26,449 bases of DNA from a virus: the UHGV virus genome UHGV-1509762; one strand, 5' to 3'. Positions 1 through 26,449 of the stretch are shown piece by piece. Under the pieces are notes generated by a model that was not told where the DNA came from, made no database searches, and worked only from the letters and a program-made list of their open reading frames with translations. Positions within the stretch are counted from its first letter, which is position 1; each line of letters starts with the position of its first letter. A program made the translations under genes and the position numbers.

Positions 1-40
1 TAAACCCTGTTTTCCTTGCCATAGACACCATCCCTGTCTT

Positions 41-67
41 CCCCCACATGATGTGGGGTTTTTTTTT
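41..67 (+). terminator. Rho-independent terminator-like hairpin (CCCCACAT/ATGTGGGG stem followed by a 9-T run)
   Basis: Seen directly: 8-bp GC-rich inverted repeat at 42-49/51-58 followed by TTTTTTTTT at 59-67. It lies beyond the 3' end of int, near the expected prophage/host junction. Confidence 0.5.
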
Positions 68-2127: not shown

Positions 2128-2624
2128 CAGTGATGACGCTCAATCTCGTTGAAAAACAGCCAGCAGCTATGCGCCGGATAATTGGTAAGCATCTGGCCGT
2201 CCCTCGCTGGCAGGAGACATGCGATTATTATAATCAGATGATGGAACGCGAACGGCTAACGGTTTGCTTCCATGCGCAGTTAAAACAGCGTCACGCAACG
2301 ATGCGTTTTGAAGAAATGAACGACGTCGAACGTGAACGGCTGGTTTGTGCAATTGATGAATTGCGTGGGGCATTCTCAAAACGCCGTCAGGTTGGCGCAA
2401 GTGAGTATGCATATATTAGTTTTTTAACAGTCAGTCAGCGTCGTACTTTATTTATGCATGCCGGATTGACTGAAAAAGAATTCAACCAGCCATACTGGCG
2501 AATTAATGAAGAATTATGTTACTGGCGTGATGCTTTATTCCGTGCATTACGTGAATTATTCAGCCTGTTTGAGTATGCACCGACAATTCTGACGTCGGTA
2601 AAACCAGAGCAATATCTGCATTAA
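2124..2624 (+). CDS. B: Replication protein B-like
   Basis: 166 aa from the ATG at 2124 (GGAGGG RBS at 2111-2116, 7-nt spacer); same length and position as P2 gpB. The track's upstream Met at 2118 is too close to the RBS. Confidence 0.7.
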   Translation: MTVMTLNLVEKQPAAMRRIIGKHLAVPRWQETCDYYNQMMERERLTVCFHAQLKQRHATMRFEEMNDVERERLVCAIDELRGAFSKRRQVGASEYAYISFLTVSQRRTLFMHAGLTEKEFNQPYWRINEELCYWRDALFRALRELFSLFEYAPTILTSVKPEQYLH

Positions 2625-2687
2625 GTAATTAACCAGAGTTTTTAACGCACTTAATCGTGCGGGGCTTCTTTTTGCCTGGAGAAAGTC

Positions 2688-2912
2688 ATGCATACAGTTT
2701 CTGAAAATCAGTGCGGTAAATACGCATTACTGCTGCAACAGGCCAGAACCGAAGCACAGGCCGACGCAGCGACGCGCTTTTCTTCTCATCTTGACGCCAT
2801 GATTCGCCACATCACAAAGGCGGAGTTATCCCGCGTGGAGATAGTCGAGCTGCTCAGTCAGGAGTCGGAAAAATTTCACAATATCGGATTGTCTCGCGGG
2901 GAGGTGCTTTGA
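2688..2912 (+). CDS. Hypothetical early protein (P2 orf80 position)
   Basis: 74-aa ORF with GGAG RBS upstream of the ATG, in the conserved cox-B-small ORFs-A early operon. Confidence 0.55.
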
Positions 2913-3214
2913 TGTCCTGTTCTCGTTCAGTTGTATTACTGAATAACGCCTTAAAAATCGCCGTTATGAAAAATGGCGATTTATCTCTTATTCAACTTGG
3001 TCTTGATAAAGAAAAACGCGAAATAACTGAGTCTGTTATCGCGATTTATCAGAACGAATTAAATCTCCTGTCTGATGTGGTCAATTTACTTGTTAAACGC
3101 GCTGTATTTCACAAGAAAATCTCCTCCGTGGATGAACTGACAAAATTAACAACAGAAATTGCCAGCTATTGCGCTGATGAATTTAAAAAACTTAACGACA
3201 AAAGGAGCTGGTAA
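2912..3214 (+). CDS. Hypothetical early protein (P2 orf81 position)
   Basis: 100 aa from the ATG at 2912 (overlapping the previous stop as TGATG; GGGAGGTG RBS at 2898-2905). The track's start at 2909 is a TTG one codon upstream. Confidence 0.55.
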   Translation: MSCSRSVVLLNNALKIAVMKNGDLSLIQLGLDKEKREITESVIAIYQNELNLLSDVVNLLVKRAVFHKKISSVDELTKLTTEIASYCADEFKKLNDKRSW

Positions 3215-3438
3215 TGCCGGACAACGTAGATTTTATTCAGGAACAACAGGCTGAATTACTGGAGCGTCAGATTAACGCGGCAAGGGTAAAACATTGCGGT
3301 GCTTCTGCGCTGGTTTGCGAAGAGTGTGACGCGCCAATACCTGCTGCCCGTCGTGCGGCTTATCCGTCAGCCACGCGTTGTGTTTCCTGTCAGTCAGTCT
3401 TTGAAGCAAAAAACAAACATTACCGGAGAACGGCATGA
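3214..3438 (+). CDS. TraR/DksA-family C4 zinc-finger protein (P2 orf82-like)
   Basis: 74 aa with CxxC...CxxC arrangement (CEECDAPIPAARRAAYPSATRCVSCQ) typical of the TraR/DksA zinc finger; AAGGAG RBS at 3202-3207. Confidence 0.7.
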   Translation: MPDNVDFIQEQQAELLERQINAARVKHCGASALVCEECDAPIPAARRAAYPSATRCVSCQSVFEAKNKHYRRTA

Positions 3439-3710
3439 GTATTCGTATTGAAATTGGCGAACGTTATGTCGTTACCAGTGACAGCTTTCAGTTTATTCTC
3501 CACGAGAAAAAGAGAGCGGAAAGCGGTAAAAACGCCGGTCAGGAATGGCTGGCGGTGGTTGGTTATTACCCGAAATTAAGCCAGCTCGTTTCCGGCCTGA
3601 TGCATCACGATATTCTGACCGGAAGCGCAAAATCTTTTGCTGATTTAAACGCGCAGGTTGAGCAACTCAGCAAGCGTTGTTCAGAGGCTTTTGGCTCACA
3701 TGGACGTTAA
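3435..3710 (+). CDS. Hypothetical early protein (P2 orf83 position)
   Basis: 91-aa ORF, ATG at 3435 overlapping the previous stop, GGAG RBS upstream. Confidence 0.55.
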   Translation: MSIRIEIGERYVVTSDSFQFILHEKKRAESGKNAGQEWLAVVGYYPKLSQLVSGLMHHDILTGSAKSFADLNAQVEQLSKRCSEAFGSHGR

Positions 3711-5973
3711 AGCCTCCGGGCGTTTTGTCCCTCCGTCAGCATTTGCCGCAGGCACCGGTAAGACGTTTACCGGTGCTTATGCATGGAACGCGCCACGCGA
3801 GGCCGTCGGGCGCGAAAGACCCCTTACACGTGACGAGATGCGTCAGGTGCAAGGTGTTTTATCCACGATTAACCGCCTGCCTTACTTTTTGCGTTCGCTG
3901 TTTACTTCACGCTATGACTACATCCGGCGCAATAAAAGCCCGGTGCACGGGTTTTATTTCCTCACATCCACTTTTCAGCGTCGTTTATGGCCGCGCATTG
4001 AGCGCGTGAATCAGCGCCATGAAATGAACACCGACGCGTCGTTGCTGTTTCTGGCAGAGCGTGACCACTATGCGCGCCTGCCTGGAATGAATGACAAGGA
4101 GCTGAAAAAGTTTGCCGCCCGTATCTCATCGCAGCTTTTCATGATGTATGAGGAACTCTGCGATGCATGGGTTGATGCGCATGGTGAAAAAGAATCGCTG
4201 TTTACGGATGAGGCGCAGGCTCACCTGTATGGTCATGTTGCTGGCGCTGCACGTGCTTTCAATATTTCCCCGCTCTACTGGAAAAAATACAGTAAAGGAC
4301 AGATGACCACGAGGCAGGCATATTCTGCCATTGCCCGTCTGTTTAACGATGAGTGGTGGATTAGTCAGCTTAAAGGCCAGCGTATGCGCTGGCATGAGGC
4401 GTTACTGATTGCTGTCGGGGAGGTCAATAAAGACCGTTCTCCTTATGCCAGTAAACATGCCATTCGTGATGTGCGTGCGCGCCGCCAGGCAAATCTGGAA
4501 TTTCTTAAATCGTGTGACCTTGAAAACAGGGAAACCGGCGAGCGCATCGACCTTATCAGTAAGGTGATGGGCAGTATTTCTAATCCAGAAATTCGCCGGA
4601 TGGAGCTGATGAACACCATTGCCGGTATTGAGCGTTACGCCGCCGCAGAGGGTGATTTGGGGATGTTTATCACGCTGACCGCGCCGTCAAAGTATCACCC
4701 GACACGTCAGGTCGGAAAAGGCGAAAGTAAAACCGTTCAGCTTAATCACGGCTGGAACGATGAGGCATTTAATCCAAAGGATGCGCAGCGTTATCTCTGC
4801 CGTATCTGGAGCCTGATGCGCACGGCATTCAAGGATAATGATTTACAGGTCTACGGTTTGCGTGTCGTCGAGCCACACCACGACGGAACGCCGCACTGGC
4901 ATATGATGCTTTTTTGTCATCCACGCCAGCGTAACCAGATTATCGAAATCATGCGTCGCTATGCGCTCAAAGAGGATGGCGACGAAAGAGGAGCCGCGCG
5001 AAACCGTTTTCAGGAAAAACACCTTAACCGGGGCGGTGCTGCGGGGTATATCGCGAAATACATCTCAAAAAATATCGACGGCTATGCACTGGATGGGCAG
5101 CTCGATAACGATACCGGCAGACCGCTGAAAGATACTGCCGCGGCTGTTACCGCATGGGCGTCAACGTGGCGCATTCCGCAATTTAAAACGGTTGGCCTGC
5201 CGACAATGGGGGCTTACCGTGAACTACGCAAATTGCCTCGCGGCGTCAGCATTGCTGATGAGTTTGACGAGCGCGTCGAGGCTGCACGCGCCGCCGCAGA
5301 CAGTGGTGATTTTGCGCTGTATATCAGCGCGCAGGGTGGGGCAAATGTCCCGCGCGATTGCCAGACTGTCAGGGTTGCCCGTAGCCCGTCGGATGACGTT
5401 AACGAGTACGAGGAAGAAGTCGAGAGAGTGGTCGGCATTTACGCGCCGCATCTCGGCGCGCGTCATATTCATATCACCAGAACGACGGACTGGCGCATTG
5501 TTCCGAAAGTGCCGGTCGTTGAGCCTTTGACTTTAAAAAGCGGCATCGCCGCGCCTCGGAGTCCTGTCAATAACTGTGGAAAACTCACCGGTGGTGATAC
5601 TTCGTTACCGGCTCCCACACCTTCTGAGCACGCCGCAGCAGTGCTTAATCTGGTTGATGACAGTGTTATCGAATGGAGTGACCCGGAGGTCGTGAGGGCG
5701 CTCAGAGGTGCATTAAAACACGGTCGGAGAACGCCAAATCGTCAGCAAAGAAACGGAAGCTCGTTAAAACCACATGAAATTGCACCATCGGCCAGACTGG
5801 CCCGGTCGGAACGAATGCAAATTACCCGTATCCGCGTTGACCTTGCTCAGAACGGTATCAGGCCGCAGCGATGGGAGCTTGAGGCGCTGGCGCGTGGCGC
5901 GACCGTAAATTATGATGGGAAAACGTTTTCATATCCGATTTCTGATGGTTGGGCGGGATTTGAAACAAACTAA
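3700..5973 (+). CDS. A: Rolling-circle replication initiator endonuclease (P2 gpA-like, HUH superfamily)
   Basis: About 760 aa; HUH motif (PHWHMMLF, DNA about 4897-4920) and two-tyrosine active-site motif (GYIAKYISK, DNA about 5044-5070). Start set at the ATG at 3700 (MDVKASGRF, like the P2 A N-terminus as I recall); the track's start at 3658 is a TTG. Confidence 0.92.
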   Translation: MDVKASGRFVPPSAFAAGTGKTFTGAYAWNAPREAVGRERPLTRDEMRQVQGVLSTINRLPYFLRSLFTSRYDYIRRNKSPVHGFYFLTSTFQRRLWPRIERVNQRHEMNTDASLLFLAERDHYARLPGMNDKELKKFAARISSQLFMMYEELCDAWVDAHGEKESLFTDEAQAHLYGHVAGAARAFNISPLYWKKYSKGQMTTRQAYSAIARLFNDEWWISQLKGQRMRWHEALLIAVGEVNKDRSPYASKHAIRDVRARRQANLEFLKSCDLENRETGERIDLISKVMGSISNPEIRRMELMNTIAGIERYAAAEGDLGMFITLTAPSKYHPTRQVGKGESKTVQLNHGWNDEAFNPKDAQRYLCRIWSLMRTAFKDNDLQVYGLRVVEPHHDGTPHWHMMLFCHPRQRNQIIEIMRRYALKEDGDERGAARNRFQEKHLNRGGAAGYIAKYISKNIDGYALDGQLDNDTGRPLKDTAAAVTAWASTWRIPQFKTVGLPTMGAYRELRKLPRGVSIADEFDERVEAARAAADSGDFALYISAQGGANVPRDCQTVRVARSPSDDVNEYEEEVERVVGIYAPHLGARHIHITRTTDWRIVPKVPVVEPLTLKSGIAAPRSPVNNCGKLTGGDTSLPAPTPSEHAAAVLNLVDDSVIEWSDPEVVRALRGALKHGRRTPNRQQRNGSSLKPHEIAPSARLARSERMQITRIRVDLAQNGIRPQRWELEALARGATVNYDGKTFSYPISDGWAGFETN

Positions 5974-5987
5974 CAATAATGATTGAC

Positions 5988-6018
5988 ATGCTTGATTTTG
6001 TATTCACAAATCAAGCAT
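5988..6018. repeat. Perfect 11-bp inverted repeat (ATGCTTGATTT / AAATCAAGCAT, 9-nt spacer) preceded by TTGACA; candidate operator or regulatory hairpin upstream of the methyltransferase
   Basis: Seen directly at 5988-5998 and 6008-6018, with TTGACA at 5983-5988. Lies in the gap between gene A and the methyltransferase start. Confidence 0.6.
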
Positions 6019-6084
6019 CAAGTAAACATCGATGATGAGAAAGAACAATGCTACAATCCCCACAGCATTAGAAGGAGGTTTATC

Positions 6085-7134
6085 TTGATTAAGGTTGTTG
6101 ATTTATTCTGTGGCGCGGGTGGCTTGACTCACGGTCTTCAGAAGTCGGGGCTTAATGTAGTTGCAGGTTATGATATAGATGCAGCCTGTCGATTTGCCTA
6201 TGAGACAAATAATAAATCACTCTTTGTCCAGAAAAGTGTTACAGACATTGAGGACGGCGAATTAGTTAAATATTTCGAAGGAGCGAAGGTTCGAGTTTTG
6301 GCTGGTTGTGCCCCATGCCAACCTTTTTCAAGCTATACCAATAGTGCTAAATTAGGGGTAGTACGTTCAAAAGATAAAAGATGGTCTTTGCTTTATAGCT
6401 TTGCTAAGCAAATTAAATTTGCAAAGCCAGATATTATTACAATGGAAAACGTTCCCCGAGTGGTGAATCATAAGGTTTTTAAGGACTTCATTAAGTCTCT
6501 TAAAAATGATGGCTATTTTGTTTGGTATGGGGTGGTGTTTTGTCCAGACTATGGAATGGCACAAAGTCGTTCAAGATTAGTGTTATTGGCATCAAAATAT
6601 GGAGAAATAGAAATAATTCCACCAACTCATGAGAAGAATGATTATAAAACGGTGCGAGATATAATCGGTAATCTTCCTGAAATTAGTGCCGGTGCTGTTC
6701 ACGCTGGAGATAAACTACATCGCTCTGCATCATTATCTGATATTAATATAAAAAGAATAATGGCATCAAAACCTGGTGGAACATGGCGTGATTGGCCAGA
6801 AGAGCTAAGAGCAAAATGTCATACAAAAGAAAGTGGTTCTACATATACTGCTGTATATGGGAGAATGTGTTGGGATAAACTTGGACCGACAATTACAACT
6901 CAATGTATTGGATATGGGAATGGACGCTTTGGGCACCCTGTCCAAAATAGAGCATTAAGTTTAAGAGAGGCTGCGCTATTACAGTCATTCCCAGAAAAGT
7001 ATGAGTTTTGGCCTGATGATGTAAAAATTGAAATGAGAACAGTTGCGCGTTTAATAGGTAATGCTGTTCCTGTTAGGCTTGGTGAGGTCGTAGGTGAAAC
7101 TATTTTAAAACATTTGTCAGAAATGAATATTTAA
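6085..7134 (+). CDS. DNA (cytosine-5)-methyltransferase
   Basis: C5-MTase motifs in canonical order: motif I LFCGAGG (FxGxGG), motif IV GCAPCQPFS (catalytic PCQ), motif VI ENV (ITMENVPRV), motif VIII QSRSR, motif X GNAVPV. Start set at the TTG at 6085 because a GAAGGAGG RBS lies 6 nt upstream and motif I follows within about 10 residues; the N-terminal extension of the track ORF (from 5983, also TTG) is low-complexity. Confidence 0.9.
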   Translation: MIKVVDLFCGAGGLTHGLQKSGLNVVAGYDIDAACRFAYETNNKSLFVQKSVTDIEDGELVKYFEGAKVRVLAGCAPCQPFSSYTNSAKLGVVRSKDKRWSLLYSFAKQIKFAKPDIITMENVPRVVNHKVFKDFIKSLKNDGYFVWYGVVFCPDYGMAQSRSRLVLLASKYGEIEIIPPTHEKNDYKTVRDIIGNLPEISAGAVHAGDKLHRSASLSDINIKRIMASKPGGTWRDWPEELRAKCHTKESGSTYTAVYGRMCWDKLGPTITTQCIGYGNGRFGHPVQNRALSLREAALLQSFPEKYEFWPDDVKIEMRTVARLIGNAVPVRLGEVVGETILKHLSEMNI

Positions 7135-7146
7135 AACTTATGTCAT

Positions 7147-7170
7147 CCCCCCTGTCAAAAAACAGGGGGG
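7147..7170. terminator. Hairpin between convergent genes (CCCCCCTGT / ACAGGGGGG stem, A-rich loop); likely bidirectional terminator
   Basis: Seen directly: 9-bp GC-rich inverted repeat in the 41-bp gap between the methyltransferase stop (7134) and the stop of the minus-strand ATPase gene (7176). Confidence 0.6.
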
Positions 7171-7175
7171 TATAA

Positions 7176-9134
7176 TTAGATTCCCTCAACTATTTTCATA
7201 ATTCTAGCTGCATCATTCTTTTTGTCTTGATATTCAGCATAGGCTTGTTTTGATTGCACGATTAGGTCATTATATGTCAATATTTTTCCATTGATAGAAA
7301 GTAATTGCATATTTATAAAGTGTTGGTTCTCTTGTAAATATCCAGAGCCAACCAGGAATATTACTTCTATATGCGGTATATTTCCACCTGGGCAATTTTT
7401 AGGGTTATTGGAGAACCATTGTGTCGTTGCCTGTACATATTTATTACCTTGTGCGACTAGGTTCATTATATCTGGGTGCACTTTAGGTCGTTTCATCTCA
7501 ATAATTACATGCTTGCCAGAAACGGTTTTGAAAGCGATATCAATACGAGCACCGCTAGCAGCATCAGGGTTTATCTGTTTTAGTTCCTTGGTCAATGTTT
7601 GCTCCATAACAGATGTGCCTGTGACTCTTTCCCATGAAGGATCCAATAACCATAAATGATCATATAAATACATTTGTACAGCTCTTTCAAGCTGATTTTC
7701 ATCAGTTATTTTTTGGAATTTTTCAATTACTTTAAGGCGTTGCGAAGTAATTTCATAAAACATGCTTGCTTCAATGTCATTGACAGATGCAAATACATCT
7801 TTAAAATTTTCTGATTGAAGGTTGCTTATTTTATCTAATGCATCAAGGTTGTCTTGAATTCTAAGTCTTTCAAAGGCTAATACCGTATTTTTTAATACGG
7901 TTTTTCTTGCTGCTTTTTGTTCTTCCTCATTACCAGAAAAACGGAATGTGTTTACTCGTCCAATTAACTTTTCGGCACTTTCTCTCTCATGTTTTTTGAG
8001 AGAATTCAGCCATTCACTTACTATTGGAGTATTGCTTTTAACTTCATTTACTCCTTTTTCGCGTCTCCATTTATCCCAATCTTTATCGATTAGTTGTAGC
8101 GTTCTTTCCAGAAAACCTTTAAGTACAGGGTATCTTGGATCATTCTGTTGTAGTTTTTGACGAGAAGATGTTGCCATATCAGGCTTTTCGTTATCATCTA
8201 GAAAATCGGCGACTATTTCACCGACCAGATAATTGGTGAATACTTTAGCACTTCCAAATTCTAATAATATGTCCTCCTCAAAAACACGTCCGTGAGAGAT
8301 TACAGTAATGCTGTTGTTAGATATTTCAGGGTCTTTCTTTAACTGTGATGGCTTAACTACACTGCCAATGTACCCACTAACTTTTACATCTTTTCCTTCA
8401 AAGGTAATAGTATTTGGTAATATGTTTTTTTGTGTGATGTTTGTGCAGGATTTTATCCTTTCAGGGTCGGATTCGCCAAATTCCCAAATGAACTCGAGAT
8501 CTGAAAGGAAATCTCTATCTGCCGGTGTAATATCGGTCCCATTAATTTTAACTGTAAAGTTATGGTTGGGGCCAATAATGCTAAATCGACGAGCTATTCG
8601 CTTTCTGAGGTAAGTTTGAGTCCTATCAATGGCTTTTTTTAGTTCAAATAATTTAATTGTAGTGCCGTAAGCAAGATTTTCGGGTATTTCAAGGGAGTCA
8701 GCAATATAGTTTTTTGATTCTTTGATACTTTGCTGTAAATCTTTGACATCTACCTCAAAGGCCTGAGGCTGTTCCCCCTTTTTGTACGAATAAACTTGGA
8801 TTTTATTGGCAAGTGAAAACATGGCAAGCTTACCAATACCTTTTCTGCCCATAACTTGACGTTTTAGATGATCGCTTTTGGCTCTTCCATGTTCCCTGCG
8901 AGCATAACCGACTTTTAGGAACTTATTAATAATGTCATCTTTAGACATGCCATGACCATCATCTTTAATGATGACCTCTCCTTTCTCAACATCAAGTGTA
9001 ATTTCTACATTTTGAGCATCTGCATCCCATGCATTTGATATAATCTCAGTTAGTACCGCGGGAGTATTGGAATAGAGACTCATCCCTAGGTGATTTAGCA
9101 CATTCAAATCAATTTTAATTTCGAAATCTGACAT
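7176..9134 (-). CDS. GHKL-family (MORC/MutL/Hsp90-like) ATPase with a C-terminal PD-(D/E)xK-like nuclease motif; putative ATP-dependent restriction or defence nuclease
   Basis: N-terminus carries the Bergerat-fold motifs: N box EIISNAWDADA (E30, N34, D37), G1 box IKDDGHGM (DxGxG), G2 box GRKGIGK. The C-terminal segment ARIDIAFKTVSGKHVIIEMKRPK has a D ... ExK arrangement (D532, E546, K548; DNA 7491-7541) consistent with a PD-(D/E)xK nuclease core. AAGGAA RBS precedes the ATG at 9134. The gene is AT-rich relative to the phage backbone. Confidence 0.85.
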   Translation of the reverse strand: MSDFEIKIDLNVLNHLGMSLYSNTPAVLTEIISNAWDADAQNVEITLDVEKGEVIIKDDGHGMSKDDIINKFLKVGYARREHGRAKSDHLKRQVMGRKGIGKLAMFSLANKIQVYSYKKGEQPQAFEVDVKDLQQSIKESKNYIADSLEIPENLAYGTTIKLFELKKAIDRTQTYLRKRIARRFSIIGPNHNFTVKINGTDITPADRDFLSDLEFIWEFGESDPERIKSCTNITQKNILPNTITFEGKDVKVSGYIGSVVKPSQLKKDPEISNNSITVISHGRVFEEDILLEFGSAKVFTNYLVGEIVADFLDDNEKPDMATSSRQKLQQNDPRYPVLKGFLERTLQLIDKDWDKWRREKGVNEVKSNTPIVSEWLNSLKKHERESAEKLIGRVNTFRFSGNEEEQKAARKTVLKNTVLAFERLRIQDNLDALDKISNLQSENFKDVFASVNDIEASMFYEITSQRLKVIEKFQKITDENQLERAVQMYLYDHLWLLDPSWERVTGTSVMEQTLTKELKQINPDAASGARIDIAFKTVSGKHVIIEMKRPKVHPDIMNLVAQGNKYVQATTQWFSNNPKNCPGGNIPHIEVIFLVGSGYLQENQHFINMQLLSINGKILTYNDLIVQSKQAYAEYQDKKNDAARIMKIVEGI

Positions 9135-9319
9135 ATAGTCGTTCCTTGCTGAGAGTTCATTTTAGTTTCATGCAATCAATAGGTTAGGCTGAAGATAAAA
9201 CCTTAAGATAACCAAAGCAAGTGTTCATTAGCGGCTTTGTTTCATGACATGATGTGTGTCGCTTTTTGCATGAAACTGCATTTGTTTCTTATATCTGCTC
9301 TTTTTACATACTGCTAGTG

Positions 9320-9341
9320 TTGACATGGCTTTGACATGGCT
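9320..9341. repeat. Perfect tandem duplication TTGACATGGCT x2 near cos
   Basis: Seen directly at 9320-9330 and 9331-9341, about 40 bp from the cos cohesive-end sequence. Function unknown: could be promoter -35-like elements or terminase-binding (cosB-like) repeats. Confidence 0.6.
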
Positions 9342-9377
9342 GTGCAACTGCATTAAAACCGCCCCATGAAGCGGGCG

Positions 9378-9396
9378 GGCGAGGCGGGGAAAGCAC
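9378..9396. other. cos site: P2-type 19-nt cohesive-end sequence GGCGAGGCGGGGAAAGCAC
   Basis: Sequence matches the P2 cohesive end as I recall it. It lies about 170 bp beyond the 3' end of the portal gene Q, the same spacing as in P2. Confidence 0.7.
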
Positions 9397-9538
9397 TGCG
9401 CGCTGGCGGTGGTGCTGATTTTATTTTTTCAGCGTCTCAGCGCGTCGTAATGGCGTTTAGATTGTGCGCCGGGGCGTTGGTGTGTCTGCGGGCTGTTTTG
9501 TGCGGTGGTGAGCGTGTGAGGGCGTGATGACGGGGTGT

Positions 9539-9560
9539 AAAAAAGCCGCCCGCAGGCGGC
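9539..9560 (-). terminator. Rho-independent terminator of the late P-Q operon
   Basis: On the minus strand a GCCGCC-TGCG-GGCGGC hairpin (9545-9560) is followed by a T run (A run 9539-9544 on the plus strand), immediately after the Q stop at 9566. Confidence 0.65.
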
Positions 9561-9565
9561 GATGT

Positions 9566-10600
9566 TCAGCCGTTGTCAGTGTCCAGTGAGTAGTTTTTAA
9601 AGCGGATGACCTCCTGGCCGAGCCAGCCGTTTATTTCCCGAATCCTGTCCTGTAACGGGATTAGCTCATTGCGGACAAAGACCTTTGCCACTTTCTCAAT
9701 ATCGCCCAGTGACCCGACGTTCTCCGGCTTGCCACCCATCAACTGAAAGGGGATGCGGTGTGCGTCCAGCAGGTCAGCGGCGCTGGCTTTTTTGATATTA
9801 AAAAAATCGTCCTTCGTCGCCACTTCACTGAGCGGGATAATTTTAATGCCGTCGGCTTTCCCCTGCGGGGCATAGAGAAACAGGTTTTTAAAGTTGTTGC
9901 GGCCTTTCGACTTCACCATGTTTTCGCGAAGCATTTCGATATCGTTGCGATCCTGCACGGCATCGGTAACGTACATGATGTATCCGGCATGTGCGCCGTT
10001 TTCGTAATACTTGCGGCGGAACAGCGTGGCCGACTCATTCAGCCAGGCAGAGTTAAGGGCGCTGAGATATTCCGGCAGGCCGTACAGCTCCTGATTAATA
10101 TCCGGCTCCAGCAGGTGAAACACGGAACCGGGCGTGAAAGGTGTCGGCTCGTTGAAGGACGGCACCCACCAGTAAACATCCTCTTCCACACCACGGCGGG
10201 TATATTTTGCCGGTGAGGTTTCCAGTCTGATGACCTTACCGGTGGTGCTGTAACGCTTTTCCAGAAACGCATTACCGAACACCAGAAAATCCAGCACAAA
10301 GCGGCTGAAATCCTGTTGCGAAAGCCACGGATGCGGGATAAATGTTGAGGCCAGAATATTGCGTTTGACGTAAATCGGTGAGCTGTGATGCACGGCAGCA
10401 CGCAGGCTTTTTGCCAGACCGGTAAAGCTGACCGGCGGCTCATACCATCTGCCGTTACTGATGCATTCGACGTAATCCAGAATGTCACGGCGGTCGAGTA
10501 CCGGCACCGGCTCGCCAAAGGTGAATGCTTCCATTTTCGGGGCGCTGGCGGTGATTGTTTTTGCCGCTGGCTGCGGTGTTTTCCCTTCTTTCTTGCTCAT
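9566..10600 (-). CDS. Q: Portal protein (P2 gpQ-like)
   Basis: 344 aa, same length as P2 Q; N-terminus MSKKEGKTPQPAAK...FTFGEPVPVLDRRDILDYVEC recognisable; ATGA overlap with the stop of P. Confidence 0.92.
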   Translation of the reverse strand: MSKKEGKTPQPAAKTITASAPKMEAFTFGEPVPVLDRRDILDYVECISNGRWYEPPVSFTGLAKSLRAAVHHSSPIYVKRNILASTFIPHPWLSQQDFSRFVLDFLVFGNAFLEKRYSTTGKVIRLETSPAKYTRRGVEEDVYWWVPSFNEPTPFTPGSVFHLLEPDINQELYGLPEYLSALNSAWLNESATLFRRKYYENGAHAGYIMYVTDAVQDRNDIEMLRENMVKSKGRNNFKNLFLYAPQGKADGIKIIPLSEVATKDDFFNIKKASAADLLDAHRIPFQLMGGKPENVGSLGDIEKVAKVFVRNELIPLQDRIREINGWLGQEVIRFKNYSLDTDNG

Positions 10601-12372
10601 CAGTAAAACTCCAGAATGGTGGATGTCAGCGGGGTGCTGATACCGGCGGTGAGTGGCTCATTTAACAGGGCGTGCATGGTCGCCCAGGCGAGGTCGGCGT
10701 GGCTGGCTTCCTCGCTGCGACTGGCCTCATAGGTGGCGCTGCGTCCGCTGCTGGTCATGGTCTTGCGGATAGCCATAAACGAGCTGGTGATGTCGGTGGC
10801 GCTGACGTCATATTCCAGACAGCCACGGCGGATAACGTCTTTGGCCTTGAGCACCATTGCGGTTTTCATTTCCGGCGTGTAGCGGATATCGCGCGCGGCA
10901 GGATAGAACGAGCGCACGAGCTGGAACACGCCGACACCAAGGCCGGTGGCATCAATGCCGATGTATTCGACGTTGTATTTTTCGGTGAGTTTGCGGATGG
11001 ATTCCGCCTGGGTGGCAAAGTCCATGCCTTTCCACTGGTGACGCTCAAGTATTCTGAATTTGCCACCGGCCACCACCGGCGGTGCCAGCACCACGCATCC
11101 GGCGCTGTCGCCACGGTGTGACGGGTCGTAACCAATCCATACCGGACGTGAGCCGAACGGATTGGCGGCAAACGGCGCATAGTCTTCCCATTCTTCCAGC
11201 GTGTCGACCATGCAGCGTTGCAGCTCCTCGAACGGGAACACCGACGCCTTGTCGTCAACAAATTCACACATGAACAGGTTTTTAAAATCGTCGGCGCTGT
11301 TTTCACGTTTGAGCTGCTCAATGTCGAACAGTGTGCAGCCGCCTTTCAGGGCGTCCTCAATGGTGACAATCTGCCGCCACTGGCCGTCCGCACAGAGAAG
11401 CCCGCTGGCAAGGGCGTTATGACTGACGTCGATTTCCACACGTTCGGCGGCGCTGGCGCGTCCCCGGTTGAACAGTTCACCCGACCAGAACGGGTAGGCG
11501 TCGTGCGCCAGCGTGGACGGGGTGGAGAAATAGGTCGAGCGCAGGTGACTCTGTGAGGCCATACCTGATGCCACCTTACGCAGTACCTGAAAATTCGGGA
11601 TCCAGAAAATCTCGTCGACGTACAGGTCGCCGTTATGGCTCTGTGCGGTGTTGGAGTTGGTGCCGAGAAAAATCAGTTTTGCGCCGTTATTGCCCAGGAC
11701 AATCGGGTCACCGGTCAGGTCAACGTCAACCAGACGGGCAAAGGCGATGATGTATTCGCGGAACACATACGCCTGCGTTTTACTGGCCGACAGAAAAATC
11801 TGGTTATGACCGGTTTTCAGGGCGCGCAGCAGCGCCTCGCGGGAAAAATAAAACGTCGCGCCAATCTGGCGGGATTTCAGGATATCGCGGATGCGGTGCT
11901 CAAGCCCGGCGCGATACCAGTGCAACTGATAGTCGAAAGACTGCTCAAAGAAAATCTGCTCCAGCTTTTCGATAGCCTCGTCACTGAAAAAATTCTTTTT
12001 CGGTTTGCGACGCCCGCCTTTGTTGCGGTTAGCGACGTTCGGATTAAGGTCTGCCTCGTTGCCGGTCTGGCTGTAGCGGTTTACCCGTGCCAGTCGTTCA
12101 ATCTGGCGTCCGAGCAGGTCAATTTCCTTGAAGTCACCGCCGGTTTTCTGCGGTTTGATGATGAGCTGGGTCAGCCGCGCTTCCAGGCTCATTTCGACAC
12201 GGCTGATGGGGGCAACGCTGTCCCAGCCGTCGCGCTGTTTCCAGCTCTGCACCGTCGGGCGTTTCATCTGCAACATGGCGGCAATCTGCGGCACGGAAAA
12301 CCCCTGCCAGTACAGCAGCGCCGCCTGACGACGCGGGTCGTGTAAAAGAGTGGTGTCTGTGGTGATGGTCAT
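10600..12372 (-). CDS. P: Terminase large (ATPase) subunit (P2 gpP-like)
   Basis: 590 aa from the ATG at 12372 (GAGGT RBS 5 nt upstream), matching the P2 P length; the track's start at 12402 is a TTG. Transcribed leftward upstream of Q as in P2. Confidence 0.9.
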   Translation of the reverse strand: MTITTDTTLLHDPRRQAALLYWQGFSVPQIAAMLQMKRPTVQSWKQRDGWDSVAPISRVEMSLEARLTQLIIKPQKTGGDFKEIDLLGRQIERLARVNRYSQTGNEADLNPNVANRNKGGRRKPKKNFFSDEAIEKLEQIFFEQSFDYQLHWYRAGLEHRIRDILKSRQIGATFYFSREALLRALKTGHNQIFLSASKTQAYVFREYIIAFARLVDVDLTGDPIVLGNNGAKLIFLGTNSNTAQSHNGDLYVDEIFWIPNFQVLRKVASGMASQSHLRSTYFSTPSTLAHDAYPFWSGELFNRGRASAAERVEIDVSHNALASGLLCADGQWRQIVTIEDALKGGCTLFDIEQLKRENSADDFKNLFMCEFVDDKASVFPFEELQRCMVDTLEEWEDYAPFAANPFGSRPVWIGYDPSHRGDSAGCVVLAPPVVAGGKFRILERHQWKGMDFATQAESIRKLTEKYNVEYIGIDATGLGVGVFQLVRSFYPAARDIRYTPEMKTAMVLKAKDVIRRGCLEYDVSATDITSSFMAIRKTMTSSGRSATYEASRSEEASHADLAWATMHALLNEPLTAGISTPLTSTILEFY

Positions 12373-12545
12373 GAATACCTCGCCGTGATGAATACACGGC
12401 AAGGCTACTGAGTCGCGCCCCGCGATTCGCTAAGGTGCTGTTGTGTCAGTGATAAGCCATCCGGGACTGATGGCGGAGGATGCGCATCGTCGGGAAACTG
12501 ATGCCGACATGTGACTCCTCTAATCACTATTCAGGACTCCTGACA

Positions 12546-13400
12546 ATGGCAAAAAAAGTCTCAAAATTCTTTCGTATCGGCGTTGAGGGTGACACCTGTG
12601 ACGGGCGTGTCATCAGTGCGCAGGATATTCAGGAAATGGCCGAAACCTTTGACCCGCGAGTCTATGGTTGCCGCATTAACCTGGAACATCTGCGCGGCAT
12701 CCTGCCTGACGGTATTTTTAAGCGTTATGGCGATGTGGTCGAACTGAAGGCCGAAAAGATTGACGATGATTCGGCGCTGAAAGGCAAATGGGCGCTGTTT
12801 GCGAAAATCACCCCGACCGATGACCTTATCGCGATGAACAAGGCCGCGCAGAAGGTCTATACCTCAATGGAAATTCAGCCGAACTTTGCCAATACCGGCA
12901 AATGTTATCTGGTGGGTCTGGCCGTCACCGATGACCCGGCAAGCCTCGGCACGGAATACCTGGAATTCTGCCGCACGGCAAAACACAACCCCCTGAACCG
13001 CTTCAAATTAAGCCCTGAAAACCTGATTTCAGTGGCAACGCCCGTTGAGCTGGAATTTGAAGACCTGCCTGAAACCGTGTTCACCGCCCTGACCGAAAAG
13101 GTGAAGTCCATTTTTGGCCGCAAACAGGCCAGCGATGATGCCCGTCTGAATGACGTGCATGAAGCGGTGACCGCTGTTGCTGAACATGTGCAGGAAAAAC
13201 TGAGCGCCACTGAGCAGCGCCTCGCTGAGATGGAAACCGCCTTTTCCGCTCTTAAGCAGGAGGTGACTGACAGGGCGGATGAAACCAGCCAGGCATTCAC
13301 CCGCCTGAAAAACAGTCTCGACCACACCGAAAGTCTGACCCAGCAGCGCCGCAGCAAGGCCACTGGCGGTGGCGGTGATGCCCTGCTGACGAACTGCTGA
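12546..13400 (+). CDS. O: Capsid scaffolding protein (P2 gpO-like)
   Basis: 284 aa from the ATG at 12546; N-terminus MAKKVSKFFRIGVEGDTCDGR as in P2 gpO. The track ORF begins 22 codons upstream at 12480. Confidence 0.92.
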   Translation: MAKKVSKFFRIGVEGDTCDGRVISAQDIQEMAETFDPRVYGCRINLEHLRGILPDGIFKRYGDVVELKAEKIDDDSALKGKWALFAKITPTDDLIAMNKAAQKVYTSMEIQPNFANTGKCYLVGLAVTDDPASLGTEYLEFCRTAKHNPLNRFKLSPENLISVATPVELEFEDLPETVFTALTEKVKSIFGRKQASDDARLNDVHEAVTAVAEHVQEKLSATEQRLAEMETAFSALKQEVTDRADETSQAFTRLKNSLDHTESLTQQRRSKATGGGGDALLTNC

Positions 13401-13458
13401 CCGGCGTCAGTCAGTCCGGGAAAACCTTCACGATTAACCCTTAATTTCAGGAAAAACT

Positions 13459-14532
13459 ATGCGCCAGGAAACCCGCTTTAAATTTAATGCCTACCTGTCC
13501 CGTGTTGCCGAACTGAACGGCATCGACGCCGGTGATGTGTCGAAAAAATTCACCGTTGAACCGTCGGTCACCCAGACCCTGATGAACACCATGCAGGAGT
13601 CCTCTGATTTTCTGACCCGCATCAACATTGTGCCGGTCAGCGAAATGAAAGGGGAAAAAATTGGTATCGGTGTCACCGGCTCCATCGCCAGCACCACCGA
13701 CACCGCCGGTGGCACCGAGCGTCAGCCGAAGGACTTCTCGAAGCTGGCGTCTAACAAGTACGAATGCGACCAGATTAACTTCGATTTTTATATCCGCTAC
13801 AAAACGCTGGACCTGTGGGCGCGTTATCAGGATTTCCAGCTCCGTGTCCGTAACGCCATTATCAAACGCCAGTCCCTTGATTTCATCATGGCCGGTTTTA
13901 ACGGCGTGAGGCGTGCCGAAACCTCTGACCGCAGCAGCAATCCGATGCTGCAGGATGTGGCGGTCGGCTGGCTGCAGAAATACCGCAATGAAGCCCCGGC
14001 GCGCGTGATGAGCAAGGTCACTGACGAGGAAGGTCACACCACCTCTGAGGTCATCCGCGTGGGTAAAGGCGGTGATTATGCCAGCCTCGATGCACTGGTG
14101 ATGGATGCGACCAACAACCTGATTGAGCCGTGGTATCAGGAAGACCCTGACCTTGTGGTGATTGTGGGGCGTCAGTTACTGGCGGACAAGTATTTCCCCA
14201 TCGTCAACAAGGAGCAGGACAACAGCGAAATGCTGGCCGCTGACGTCATCATCAGCCAGAAACGCATCGGTAACCTACCAGCGGTACGCGTCCCGTACTT
14301 CCCGGCGGATGCGATGCTCATCACGAAGCTGGAAAACCTGTCCATCTACTACATGGATGACAGCCATCGCCGCGTGATTGAGGAAAACCCGAAACTCGAC
14401 CGCGTGGAGAACTACGAGTCAATGAACATTGATTACGTGGTGGAAGACTACGCCGCCGGTTGTCTGGTGGAAAAAATTAAGGTCGGTGATTTCTCCACAC
14501 CGGCTAAGGCGACCGCAGAGCCGGGAGCGTAA
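13459..14532 (+). CDS. N: Major capsid protein (P2 gpN-like)
   Basis: 357 aa, same length as P2 N; N-terminus MRQETRFKFNAYLSRVAELNG recognisable. Confidence 0.93.
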   Translation: MRQETRFKFNAYLSRVAELNGIDAGDVSKKFTVEPSVTQTLMNTMQESSDFLTRINIVPVSEMKGEKIGIGVTGSIASTTDTAGGTERQPKDFSKLASNKYECDQINFDFYIRYKTLDLWARYQDFQLRVRNAIIKRQSLDFIMAGFNGVRRAETSDRSSNPMLQDVAVGWLQKYRNEAPARVMSKVTDEEGHTTSEVIRVGKGGDYASLDALVMDATNNLIEPWYQEDPDLVVIVGRQLLADKYFPIVNKEQDNSEMLAADVIISQKRIGNLPAVRVPYFPADAMLITKLENLSIYYMDDSHRRVIEENPKLDRVENYESMNIDYVVEDYAAGCLVEKIKVGDFSTPAKATAEPGA

Positions 14533-14535
14533 CCG

Positions 14536-15279
14536 ATGACGAGTCCCGCACAGCGCCACATGATGCGGGTCTCGGCAGCGATGACCGCGCAGCGGGAAGC
14601 CGCCCCGCTGCGACATGCAACTGTCTATGAGCAGATGCTGGTCAAGCTGGCCGCAGACCAGCGCACACTGAAAGCGATTTATTCAAAAGAGCTGAAGGCC
14701 GCGAAAAAACGCGAACTGCTGCCGTTCTGGTTGCCGTGGGTGAACGGCGTGCTGGAGCAGGGCAAAGGTGCACAGGATGACATTCTGATGACGGTCATGC
14801 TGTGGCGTCTGGATACCGGCGATATTGCCGGTGCGCTGGAGATTGCCCGTTATGCCCTGAAGTACGGTCTGACCATGCCGGGTAAACACCGCCGCACCCC
14901 GCCGTACATGTTCACCGAGGAGGTGGCGCTCGCGGCCATGCGTGCTCACGCTGCCGGTGAGTCTGTGGATACCCGCCTGCTGACGGACACCCTTGAACTG
15001 ACCGCCACGGCTGACATGCCTGATGAAGTGCGCGCAAAGCTGCACAAAATCACCGGTCTGTTTCTGCGTGACGGTGGTGATGCCGCAGGTGCGCTGGCGC
15101 ACCTGCAACGTGCGACACAGCTCGACTGTCAGGCAGGCGTCAAAAAAGAGATTGAACGACTGGAGCGGGAGCTGAAACCGAAGCCGGAGCCGCAACCCAA
15201 AGCGGCCACCCGTGCCACGCGTAAGACCCGGAGTGCGACACCGGCAAAACGTGGACGCCCGAAAAAGAAAGCCAGTTAA
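14536..15279 (+). CDS. M: Terminase small (endonuclease) subunit (P2 gpM-like)
   Basis: 247 aa, same length and position as P2 M; lysine/arginine-rich C-terminus. Confidence 0.88.
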   Translation: MTSPAQRHMMRVSAAMTAQREAAPLRHATVYEQMLVKLAADQRTLKAIYSKELKAAKKRELLPFWLPWVNGVLEQGKGAQDDILMTVMLWRLDTGDIAGALEIARYALKYGLTMPGKHRRTPPYMFTEEVALAAMRAHAAGESVDTRLLTDTLELTATADMPDEVRAKLHKITGLFLRDGGDAAGALAHLQRATQLDCQAGVKKEIERLERELKPKPEPQPKAATRATRKTRSATPAKRGRPKKKAS

Positions 15280-15378
15280 CAACCGAATGCGCCCCGCGCC
15301 AGGGCGGCACGCCGGTCTGTGAGGGTGAATCACCTGACACTGTACCGGCGTCCACCGCCCGACTTTTCAGAGGTAGTC

Positions 15379-15888
15379 ATGATGACGCTGATTATTCCGC
15401 GAAAGGAGGCTCCCGTGTCCGGTGAGGGTACGGTGGTCATCCCGCAACCGGCAGGCGACGAGCCGGTGATTAAAAACACGTTCTTTTTTCCCGATATCGA
15501 CCCGAAGCGCGTCCGGGAACGTATGCGCCTTGAGCAGACCGTCGCCCCCGCCCGTCTGCGTGAGGCCATCAAGTCAGGCATGGCTGAAACGAATGCGGAG
15601 CTGTACGAGTACCGCGAACAGAAAATTGCTGCCGGTTTTACGCGTCTGGCGGACGTCCCGGCGGACGACATCGACGGTGAAAGCATCAAAGTTTTTTACT
15701 ACGAGCGCGCCGTGTGTGCGATGGCGACCGCGTCGCTTTATGAGCGTTATCGCGGTGTGGATGCCAGTGCGAAAGGCGACAAGAAGGCTGACAGCATTGA
15801 CAGCACCATTGATGAACTGTGGCGGGATATGCGCTGGGCAGTGGCGCGCATCCAGGACAAGCCGCGCTGCATCGTGAGTCAAATCTGA
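15379..15888 (+). CDS. L: Head completion/stabilisation protein (P2 gpL-like)
   Basis: 169 aa from the ATG at 15379 (MMTLIIPRKEAPVSGEG), matching the P2 L length. Confidence 0.88.
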   Translation: MMTLIIPRKEAPVSGEGTVVIPQPAGDEPVIKNTFFFPDIDPKRVRERMRLEQTVAPARLREAIKSGMAETNAELYEYREQKIAAGFTRLADVPADDIDGESIKVFYYERAVCAMATASLYERYRGVDASAKGDKKADSIDSTIDELWRDMRWAVARIQDKPRCIVSQI

Positions 15889-24747: not shown

Positions 24748-25341
24748 ATGTTTACTAAGCGACGATTAAAAAATATTAACTGGGAGGCAAGTTCAGTGAT
24801 TCTTGCTATGGTTCTCTTTGTTGGAAATATATTTTATACAAATCATCGTGATGATATAACTATGGAGGCTGAGAGGGACAGTATCAGAACAATGTTTGCA
24901 TATGAAATCGCTAATAACCATCGCGCTCTCACTTTTCTTGATAAAACGAGATATATTGGCTTTGACGAAAATTCGGAGCATTTTGTTGGCGAGCCTTTTG
25001 CCATTAATGTCAAATCATTAGGGGGGCCTCGCTTACAGATTGCATTAAACCAGACTGATAAAGTGTTTAAATCCTACTTCAGCGAATTAAGTAAGCTTGA
25101 TAAAGAGGATGTTACTCTTCTTATGGACTATTACCATGAGCAAAGCATCCTGCTGGAGCGTGTAAAATCTACGTTACAGAAGATGAAAAGTGGTAATGAT
25201 ATTAAAGTTGATATTGATGGTTACTTATTAGAAGAACACTTCATGAATGAGCTTAATCTTTCTAATATTTTGCTTAAACGCTATAGCCATTTGTTGTCAC
25301 AACACGCCAAAGAACATAAAACAAAAGATTTACATAATTGA
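24748..25341 (+). CDS. Hypothetical membrane-anchored protein of unknown function (cargo gene at the G-downstream hotspot)
   Basis: 197-aa ORF in a visibly AT-rich island; TAAGGTG RBS just upstream of the ATG; N-terminal basic stretch then one hydrophobic helix (SSVILAMVLFVGNIFY), remainder charged. No family recognised. Confidence 0.6.
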   Translation: MFTKRRLKNINWEASSVILAMVLFVGNIFYTNHRDDITMEAERDSIRTMFAYEIANNHRALTFLDKTRYIGFDENSEHFVGEPFAINVKSLGGPRLQIALNQTDKVFKSYFSELSKLDKEDVTLLMDYYHEQSILLERVKSTLQKMKSGNDIKVDIDGYLLEEHFMNELNLSNILLKRYSHLLSQHAKEHKTKDLHN

Positions 25342-25546
25342 TAATCTGCTAATGGTTATTCATGGGGTAACTATGTTTTATATGTAATCCAACTCAGATG
25401 AATTATTGATTCTGGATAATAACCGCAGAGCGGTATATACCCTGACAGGCAAATGTCCGCTTCTTGTTCAAAGCAGACCGTCAGATTTGATAACTTTTGG
25501 GCTATGTAAATTGTCAGTCGGAAAATGAGTGAGTTCAAATCAGGAC

Positions 25547-25574
25547 AGGCGGGCGAATTGCCCGCCTTTTCTTT
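25547..25574 (+). terminator. Rho-independent terminator (AGGCGGGC / GCCCGCCT stem, T-rich tail)
   Basis: Seen directly: 8-bp GC stem with 5-nt loop (25547-25567) followed by TTTTCTTT; downstream of the 197-aa ORF and just before the IS2 end. Confidence 0.6.
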
Positions 25575-25593
25575 ATCTGTTGTTTCATCCACT

Positions 25594-26449
25594 GGATTTG
25601 CCCCTATATTTCCAGACATCTGTTATCACTTAACCCATTACAAGCCCGCTGCCGCAGATATTCCCGTGGCGAGCGATAACCCAGCGCACTATGCGGATGC
25701 CATTCGTTATAATGCTCGAACGCCTCTGCAAGGTTCTTTGCTGCCGTTAACCCGTCTGGTTTGGGCATGATACTGATGTAGTCACGCTTTATCGTTTTCA
25801 CGAAGCTCTCTGCTATTCCGTTACTCTCCGGACTCCGCACCGCCGTGTTCTTCGGTTCAAGTCCCAACATCCGGGCGAACTGGCGTGTTTCATTAGCCCG
25901 GTAGCATGAACCATTATCCGTCAGCCACTCCAGTGGAGACGACGGAAGATCGTTGCCGAAGCGGCGTTCCACCGCTCCCAGCATGACGTCCTGTACTGTT
26001 TCACTGTTGAAGCCGCCGGTAGTGACCGCCCAGTGCAGTGCCTCACGATCACAGCAGTCCAGCGCGAACGTGACACGCAGTCTCTCTCCGTTATCACAGC
26101 AGAACTCGAACCCGTCAGAGCACCATCGCTGATTGCTTTCTTTCACGGCCACTCTGCCTGTATGTGCCCGTTTCGATGGCGGTACAGCAGGTTTTCGCTC
26201 AAGCAACAGCGCATTCTGGCGCATGATCCGGTAAACACGTTTGGCATTGATCGCAGGCATACCATCAAGTTCTGTTTGTCTGCGAAGCAGCGCCCATACC
26301 CGACGATAACCATACGTGGGCAGCTCTCCGATAACATGGTGTATACGGAGAAGCACATCCGTATCATCAGTGTGACGACTGCGGCGGCCATCCATCCAGT
26401 CATCGGTTCGTCTGAGAATGACGTGCAACTGCGCACGCGACACCCGGAG
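25594..26449 (-). mobile_element. IS2 insertion sequence (IS3 family), partial, inverted orientation, truncated by the window end
   Basis: The terminal sequence TGGATTTGCCCCTATATTTCCAGACATCTGTTATCACTTAA at 25594-25634 is the reverse complement of the IS2 right inverted repeat as I recall it; followed by the IS2 orfB (InsD) coding sequence on the minus strand. Confidence 0.9.
25604..26449 (-). CDS. insD: IS2 transposase OrfB (InsD), 5' end outside the window
   Basis: 279-aa track ORF is recognisable as E. coli IS2 InsD over its whole length ([29 protein letters not shown] ... [33 protein letters not shown]); the true N-terminus and orfA lie beyond 26449. Confidence 0.92.

Follow-up and report, generated by a model that had tools for sequence, protein, structure and literature searches.

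The cos sites of phage P2 and its satellite P4 are conserved, and the common site has been described as 55 bp long (PMC9594776, PMC9122126). The terminase of P2 also packages P4 (PMC9122126). In P2-like phages, the region adjacent to cos, between the genes coding for gpA and gpQ, is a defense hotspot (Rousset et al. 2022, PMC9122126), and its existence was confirmed by a 2026 survey (PMC13586616). Swapping of the cargo mediated by cos was raised by Rousset et al. 2022 as speculation only (PMC9122126). The closest systems with which a new site of this kind can be compared are the cos sites of P2 (NC_001895), of P4 (NC_001609), and of the Eganvirus phages 186 and PSP3, as well as the gpA-gpQ hotspot itself.

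The DNA analyzed here (the window) is the 26,449-nucleotide virus genome UHGV-1509762. Its genes follow the order int-C-cox-B-A-cargo-cos-Q-P-O-N-M-L and continue to the tail fibre genes, which is the order of a P2 prophage. The plus strand at positions 9378-9396 reads GGCGAGGCGGGGAAAGCAC. This is a known feature, the canonical cos site of an E. coli prophage of the P2 type. The elements of the window that are relevant to the site are the following.

24-58, plus strand: attL core of 35 bp, the longest string common to the cpxP-proximal and fieF-proximal prophage ends in E. coli CFSAN061771
3700-5973, plus strand: replication endonuclease gpA, the left border of the hotspot (Pfam Phage_GPA; RefSeq annotation)
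5961-9348: cargo slot, 3,388 bp without a P2 match, in place of P2 30295-33545
about 6085-7134, plus strand: Dcm-type m5C methyltransferase (Pfam DNA_methylase, 1e-55; PADLOC MTase_II/DrmMII, 1e-90)
7176-9134, minus strand: GHKL-ATPase restriction enzyme of 652 amino acids (NCBIfam, PADLOC), its gene convergent to that of the methyltransferase
9135-9341: upstream region of the restriction gene, inside the cargo slot
9342-9403: conserved cos core of about 62 bp, common to P2-like phages, 186 and P4-like satellites
9378-9396, plus strand: 19-nt cohesive end (identity with P2 cosL/cosR and with the P4 left end)
9404-9565: cos-portal spacer, including the equivalent of the P2 terminator tQ (alignment with P2-like phages)
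9566-10600, minus strand: portal protein gpQ (Pfam Phage_portal; 338 of 343 residues identical to P2 gpQ)
10600-12372, minus strand: large terminase gpP (Pfam Terminase_6N, Terminase_6C and Terminase_5; 589 of 590 residues identical to P2)
14536-15279, plus strand: small terminase gpM (Pfam Phage_term_smal; 243 of 247 residues identical to P2)

An earlier note on this DNA had recognized the 19-mer as the P2 cohesive end and proposed its comparison with the P2 and 186 cos sites. The identification was correct at every position. The 19 nucleotides are identical to bases 1-19 of the P2 record, which are labeled 'cosL; left cohesive end', and to the P2 cosR at 33575-33593. The first 19 bases of P4 are also identical to those at 9378-9396 (19/19). 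While there were 0 differences with respect to P2, there were two with respect to phage 186, which starts with GGCGTGGCGGGGAAAGCAT (A5T and C19T as compared to GGCGAGGCGGGGAAAGCAC). The PSP3 record describes its own cos as 'identical to 186 cos'. The sequence GGCGAGGCGGGGAAAGCAC is present in a single copy in the window when both strands are searched and up to 3 mismatches are allowed.

The extent of the conserved region was determined by aligning the window with the circularized junctions of P2, P4 and 186. Within the left 36 nt of the core, 33 positions are identical in P4, 31 in 186 and 30 in P2. To the right of the 19-mer, the 8 nt that complete the core are all identical in P2, and 6 of the 8 are identical in P4. 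For P4 and 186, conservation begins at 9342 (GTGCAACTGCATTAAAACC...); for P2 it begins at 9349, and the left flank of P2 is identical over the 29 bp that precede the cut. On the other side, the P4 similarity ends after 9403, where the right flanks diverge, and no portal or terminase genes lie beside cos in P4. In contrast, the 60 nt directly right of cos in the window and in P2 share 54 positions. The region 9342-9403 is, as judged from this conservation, the presumed terminase recognition and cleavage region. Since the P2 terminase also packages P4, which has only the core in common, we infer that the determinants essential for recognition and cleavage lie in the core. The cos site had also been taken to mark the boundary of the cargo. 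The island does adjoin the cos core directly, but the left arm of the core is conserved and therefore the boundary is not at the cut; it is located 29-36 bp to its left, at 9342-9349.

The distribution of the site in the host species was assessed by searching 5,426 complete E. coli genomes with window positions 9150-9600, and 2,153 of them had a match (the cos/Q flank). The listed matches fall into two classes. P2-like prophages align from about 9340-9349 through Q, and a second, un-annotated class aligns at about 9342-9403 only, as would be expected of satellites of the P4 kind.

The left edge of the core deserves a separate comment. Positions 9342-9348 are GTGCAAC, as in P4 and 186, while P2 has a different sequence, of the form AAGG. 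On the cargo side, a perfect 11-nt tandem direct repeat, TTGACATGGCT, is present in two copies at 9320-9341 and abuts the cos core. Judging from the alignment, this P4/186-like GTGCAAC edge could record recombination at cos. That the edge, together with the repeat of the cargo beside it, amounts to sequence-level support for cos-mediated cargo swapping seems doubtful to us. Each copy of TTGACATGGCT also contains a TTGACA hexamer that resembles a -35 element, and no full promoter was called there.

To the right of the core, the spacer can be aligned with the corresponding regions of P2, Wphi, fiAA91-ss, 186 and PSP3 with a mean column identity of 82%. The equivalent of tQ, annotated at 160-181 in P2, is a hairpin at 9545-9560 on the minus strand followed by a run of T residues. 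The portal open reading frame, 344 amino acids long, ends at 9566. The distance from cos to its stop codon, which had been estimated at about 170 bp, is 169 nt in the window and 167 nt in P2. At the protein level, the terminase subunits and the portal share 98-99.8% identity with those of P2, and the cognate gpM and gpP are encoded by the same element that carries cos. The sequence GCGGTGGTG occurs twice in the spacer, at 9406-9414 and 9502-9510, 96 bp apart, and GGTGGYG is kept at both positions in P2, Wphi, fiAA91-ss, 186 and PSP3. This motif is absent from the right arm of P4 and is therefore probably not essential for packaging. As for the Eganvirus sites, they share with the one described here the 19-nt length, the position upstream of the portal gene, an alignable spacer and, for 186, the degree of identity of the left core given above. 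They differ in the two substitutions in the 19-mer and in the content of the right-end slot, which is occupied by tum and orf97 and not by a defense cargo.

The position of the cut was approached through the ends of related records. A megablast search with window positions 9140-9620 against 50,697 phage records produced matches in 75 of them. Among the matches listed, base 1 of at least 14 linear P2-like records aligns to query position 239, that is, window position 9378. These records include fiAA91-ss, in which cosL is annotated, L-413C, R18C, HQ103 and P24A7b. A more sensitive search pointed to the same start base and added P2, Wphi, PSP3, SEN1 and EtG. From the identity with P2, we infer that cutting in this phage occurs at 9378-9396. 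Notes attached to the records of 186 and PSP3 give the geometry as 'top strand cut at 5' end and bottom strand cut at 3' end', which implies 5'-protruding ends of 19 nt. By analogy, the top strand is expected to be cut 5' of 9378 and the bottom strand after 9396, a stagger that would generate 5' overhangs.

Two other candidate features around the 19-mer were considered and rejected. Hairpins flank it at 9359-9378 on the minus strand and at 9400-9415 on the plus strand, and they look like terminators in a consensus scan. Folding of the cos core as single-stranded DNA was no better than that of shuffled sequences (z from -0.1 to -1.5), and inspection of the alignment showed that the 186 substitutions in the left stem disrupt pairs with no compensation. 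Therefore, no structural claim is made for these hairpins, and they were dropped as a structural signal. An open reading frame of 53 amino acids runs across cos (9366-9527); the record of Escherichia phage PhiR44_1 lists its product as a hypothetical protein. It is probably a spurious call and not a gene, because its P2 counterpart has another C-terminal sequence and an earlier stop and the frame is not conserved.

The arrangement at the right end of the genome was analyzed by BLASTN of the window against circularized P2, which returned two matching blocks. Window positions 4168-5960 correspond to P2 28502-30294, in gene A (95.6% identity), and positions 9349-15379 correspond to P2 33546 through cos to 6000 (97.7% identity). 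The methyltransferase/ATPase island had been placed in the right-end accessory slot of the phage genome, and the BLASTN comparison bears this out: the island replaces orf91-tin-old of P2 (30295-33545). The neighbors of cos thus differ from those in P2, with a Dcm and BbrUII/HgiDII-family restriction-modification pair in their place. The GHKL-ATPase matches the NCBIfam equivalog restrict_BbrUII (BbrUII/HgiDII family) with 751 bits, the cut-off being 550, and PADLOC REase_II at 2e-91; in the PhiR44_1 record the protein is labeled 'paraMORC3'. By homology, the cargo is recognizable as a putative defense system of the type II restriction-modification class. The slot is the known gpA-gpQ hotspot, with a cargo lying between A and Q next to cos and variable content between conserved flanks. 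There is no difference in kind from the described hotspot, and what is found here is one particular cargo, present as a whole in 30 of the 5,426 complete E. coli genomes.

Additional observations were made on the cargo. The recognition site of HgiDII/BbrUII, which we take to be GTCGAC, occurs 4 times in the window, where 6.6 occurrences are expected, and not once in cos; this count is unremarkable, and avoidance of the site was rejected as a candidate signal. A consensus scan of 9050-9650 for a promoter of the restriction gene found no sigma-70-like site. Upstream of the restriction gene there is a 12-nt perfect inverted repeat, AGTTTCATGCAA / TTGCATGAAACT, at 9164-9175 and 9266-9277, with arms 90 nt apart and related TTTCATG direct repeats. 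This inverted repeat may be a candidate regulatory site of the restriction-modification cassette. Many complete E. coli assemblies have the match at about 2-6 kb of the RefSeq record (for example, 2275-5701 in NZ_CP178715.1). Such records seem to start at the gpA gene, probably an artifact of software that rotates assemblies so that they begin with a gene for replication.

The tail sheath gene is cut off by the end of the window, so that the completeness of the prophage has to be judged from related genomes. PhiR44_1 (PV340563, 32,366 bp, host E. coli C) shares 98.2% identity with the window over 19.6 kb. The PhiR44_1 record is in prophage order and is therefore uninformative on the termini, and a literature search found no paper describing this phage. 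E. coli CFSAN061771 carries a related prophage between cpxP and fieF that is complete through the tail genes to D and ogr. An ungapped comparison of this prophage with the window showed 650 differences over 26.4 kb, so CFSAN061771 is not the strain from which the window comes. The segment comprising the cargo and cos (5974-9400) is 100% identical in both. The att cores in CFSAN061771 are 32,361 bp apart, and the attR copy is located next to ogr/fieF. The unit lengths of 32,361 bp (CFSAN061771) and 32,366 bp (PhiR44_1) are about 96% of the 33,593 bp of P2, and such a length, taken from the related records since the window ends at 26449, fits the P2 capsid (about 30-34 kb). The att core, GACACCATCCCTGTCTTCCCCCACATGATGTGGGG, is found just after cpxP, is followed by a run of T residues, and resembles the cpxP terminator hairpin. 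A further observation concerns the second P2 accessory slot (Z/fun), between the tail-fibre assembly and sheath genes, which is occupied by an open reading frame of 197 amino acids (24748-25341). This product is 'hypothetical' in RefSeq and had no match in PADLOC or NCBIfam. A second open reading frame in the same slot is found at 25371-25619 on the minus strand.

Cos, its flanks and the packaging proteins are those of P2 at the levels of identity given above, the gene order is that of P2, and the slot has been replaced between conserved borders. We consider, with a probability of about 0.93, that an apparently intact P2-like (Peduovirus) prophage is located between cpxP and fieF and that 9378-9396 is its functional cos. 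Alternatively, the prophage could be defective (grounded), and its cos, although intact, would then be a relic at which no cutting or packaging ever takes place in this strain. This possibility draws on the fact that the window stops in the sheath gene, so that tube, tape measure, U, D and ogr lie outside, and on the state of many E. coli P2-like prophages, which are multi-copy or remnants; single genomes have as many as 5 cos matches. However, the P2 genes in the window are all full length and closely resemble their P2 counterparts, the related host CFSAN061771 has a complete prophage and both att cores, and the closely related PhiR44_1 was deposited as a phage with E. coli C as its host. We regard a grounded prophage as improbable.

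Another explanation would be that the site is not the cos of a P2-type helper but derives from a P4-like satellite or reflects a chance match of G+C-rich sequence; its likelihood is negligible in our view. It is true that P4 has the identical 19-mer, that its left flank is slightly closer to the window than that of P2 (33/36 versus 30/36), and that E. coli genomes commonly contain cos matches limited to about 62 bp, as is typical of P4-like elements. Nonetheless, P2 homology runs unbroken rightwards from 9349 through Q, P, O, N and M (97.7% over 6 kb), while the similarity to P4 stops at 9403. The Pfam scan identified the P2 gpA, portal, terminase and capsid proteins and no P4 genes. As for chance, GGCGAGGCGGGGAAAGCAC had 0 matches, with up to 3 mismatches allowed, in 100 dinucleotide-preserving shuffles of the window. 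The unbroken homology to the right of cos and the shuffle control exclude a P4-type or chance origin.

For a functional cos in an intact P2-like prophage, a packaging pathway can be proposed in which cleavage, overhang polarity and encapsidation would be as in P2 and 186. Excision at the 35-bp att cores would release a genome of about 32.4 kb that would circularize and replicate. Circular monomers are reportedly the substrate of P2 packaging, as is said to follow from work by Pruss and Calendar in 1978 and by Bowden and Modrich in 1985. The P2-type terminase, composed of the small subunit gpM and the large subunit gpP, would then recognize and bind the core of about 62 bp at 9342-9403 and introduce nicks staggered by 19 nt at the two expected positions, 5' of 9378 on the top strand and after 9396 on the bottom strand. 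The DNA would enter the procapsid through the gpQ portal. The virion DNA would thus be a linear molecule of about 32.4 kb with 19-nt 5' overhangs, with Q at its left end and the restriction-modification cargo as the last 3.4 kb or so at its right end.

This prophage and P4-like satellites have no sequence in common other than the cos core, and the prophage should therefore serve as a helper that packages them. The value of the finding is mainly for annotation: with the cos site located, both ends of the virion genome are fixed and the map of the prophage can be oriented. The Dcm and BbrUII/HgiDII-type restriction-modification pair is also assigned to a well-described hotspot, and no new biology is added.
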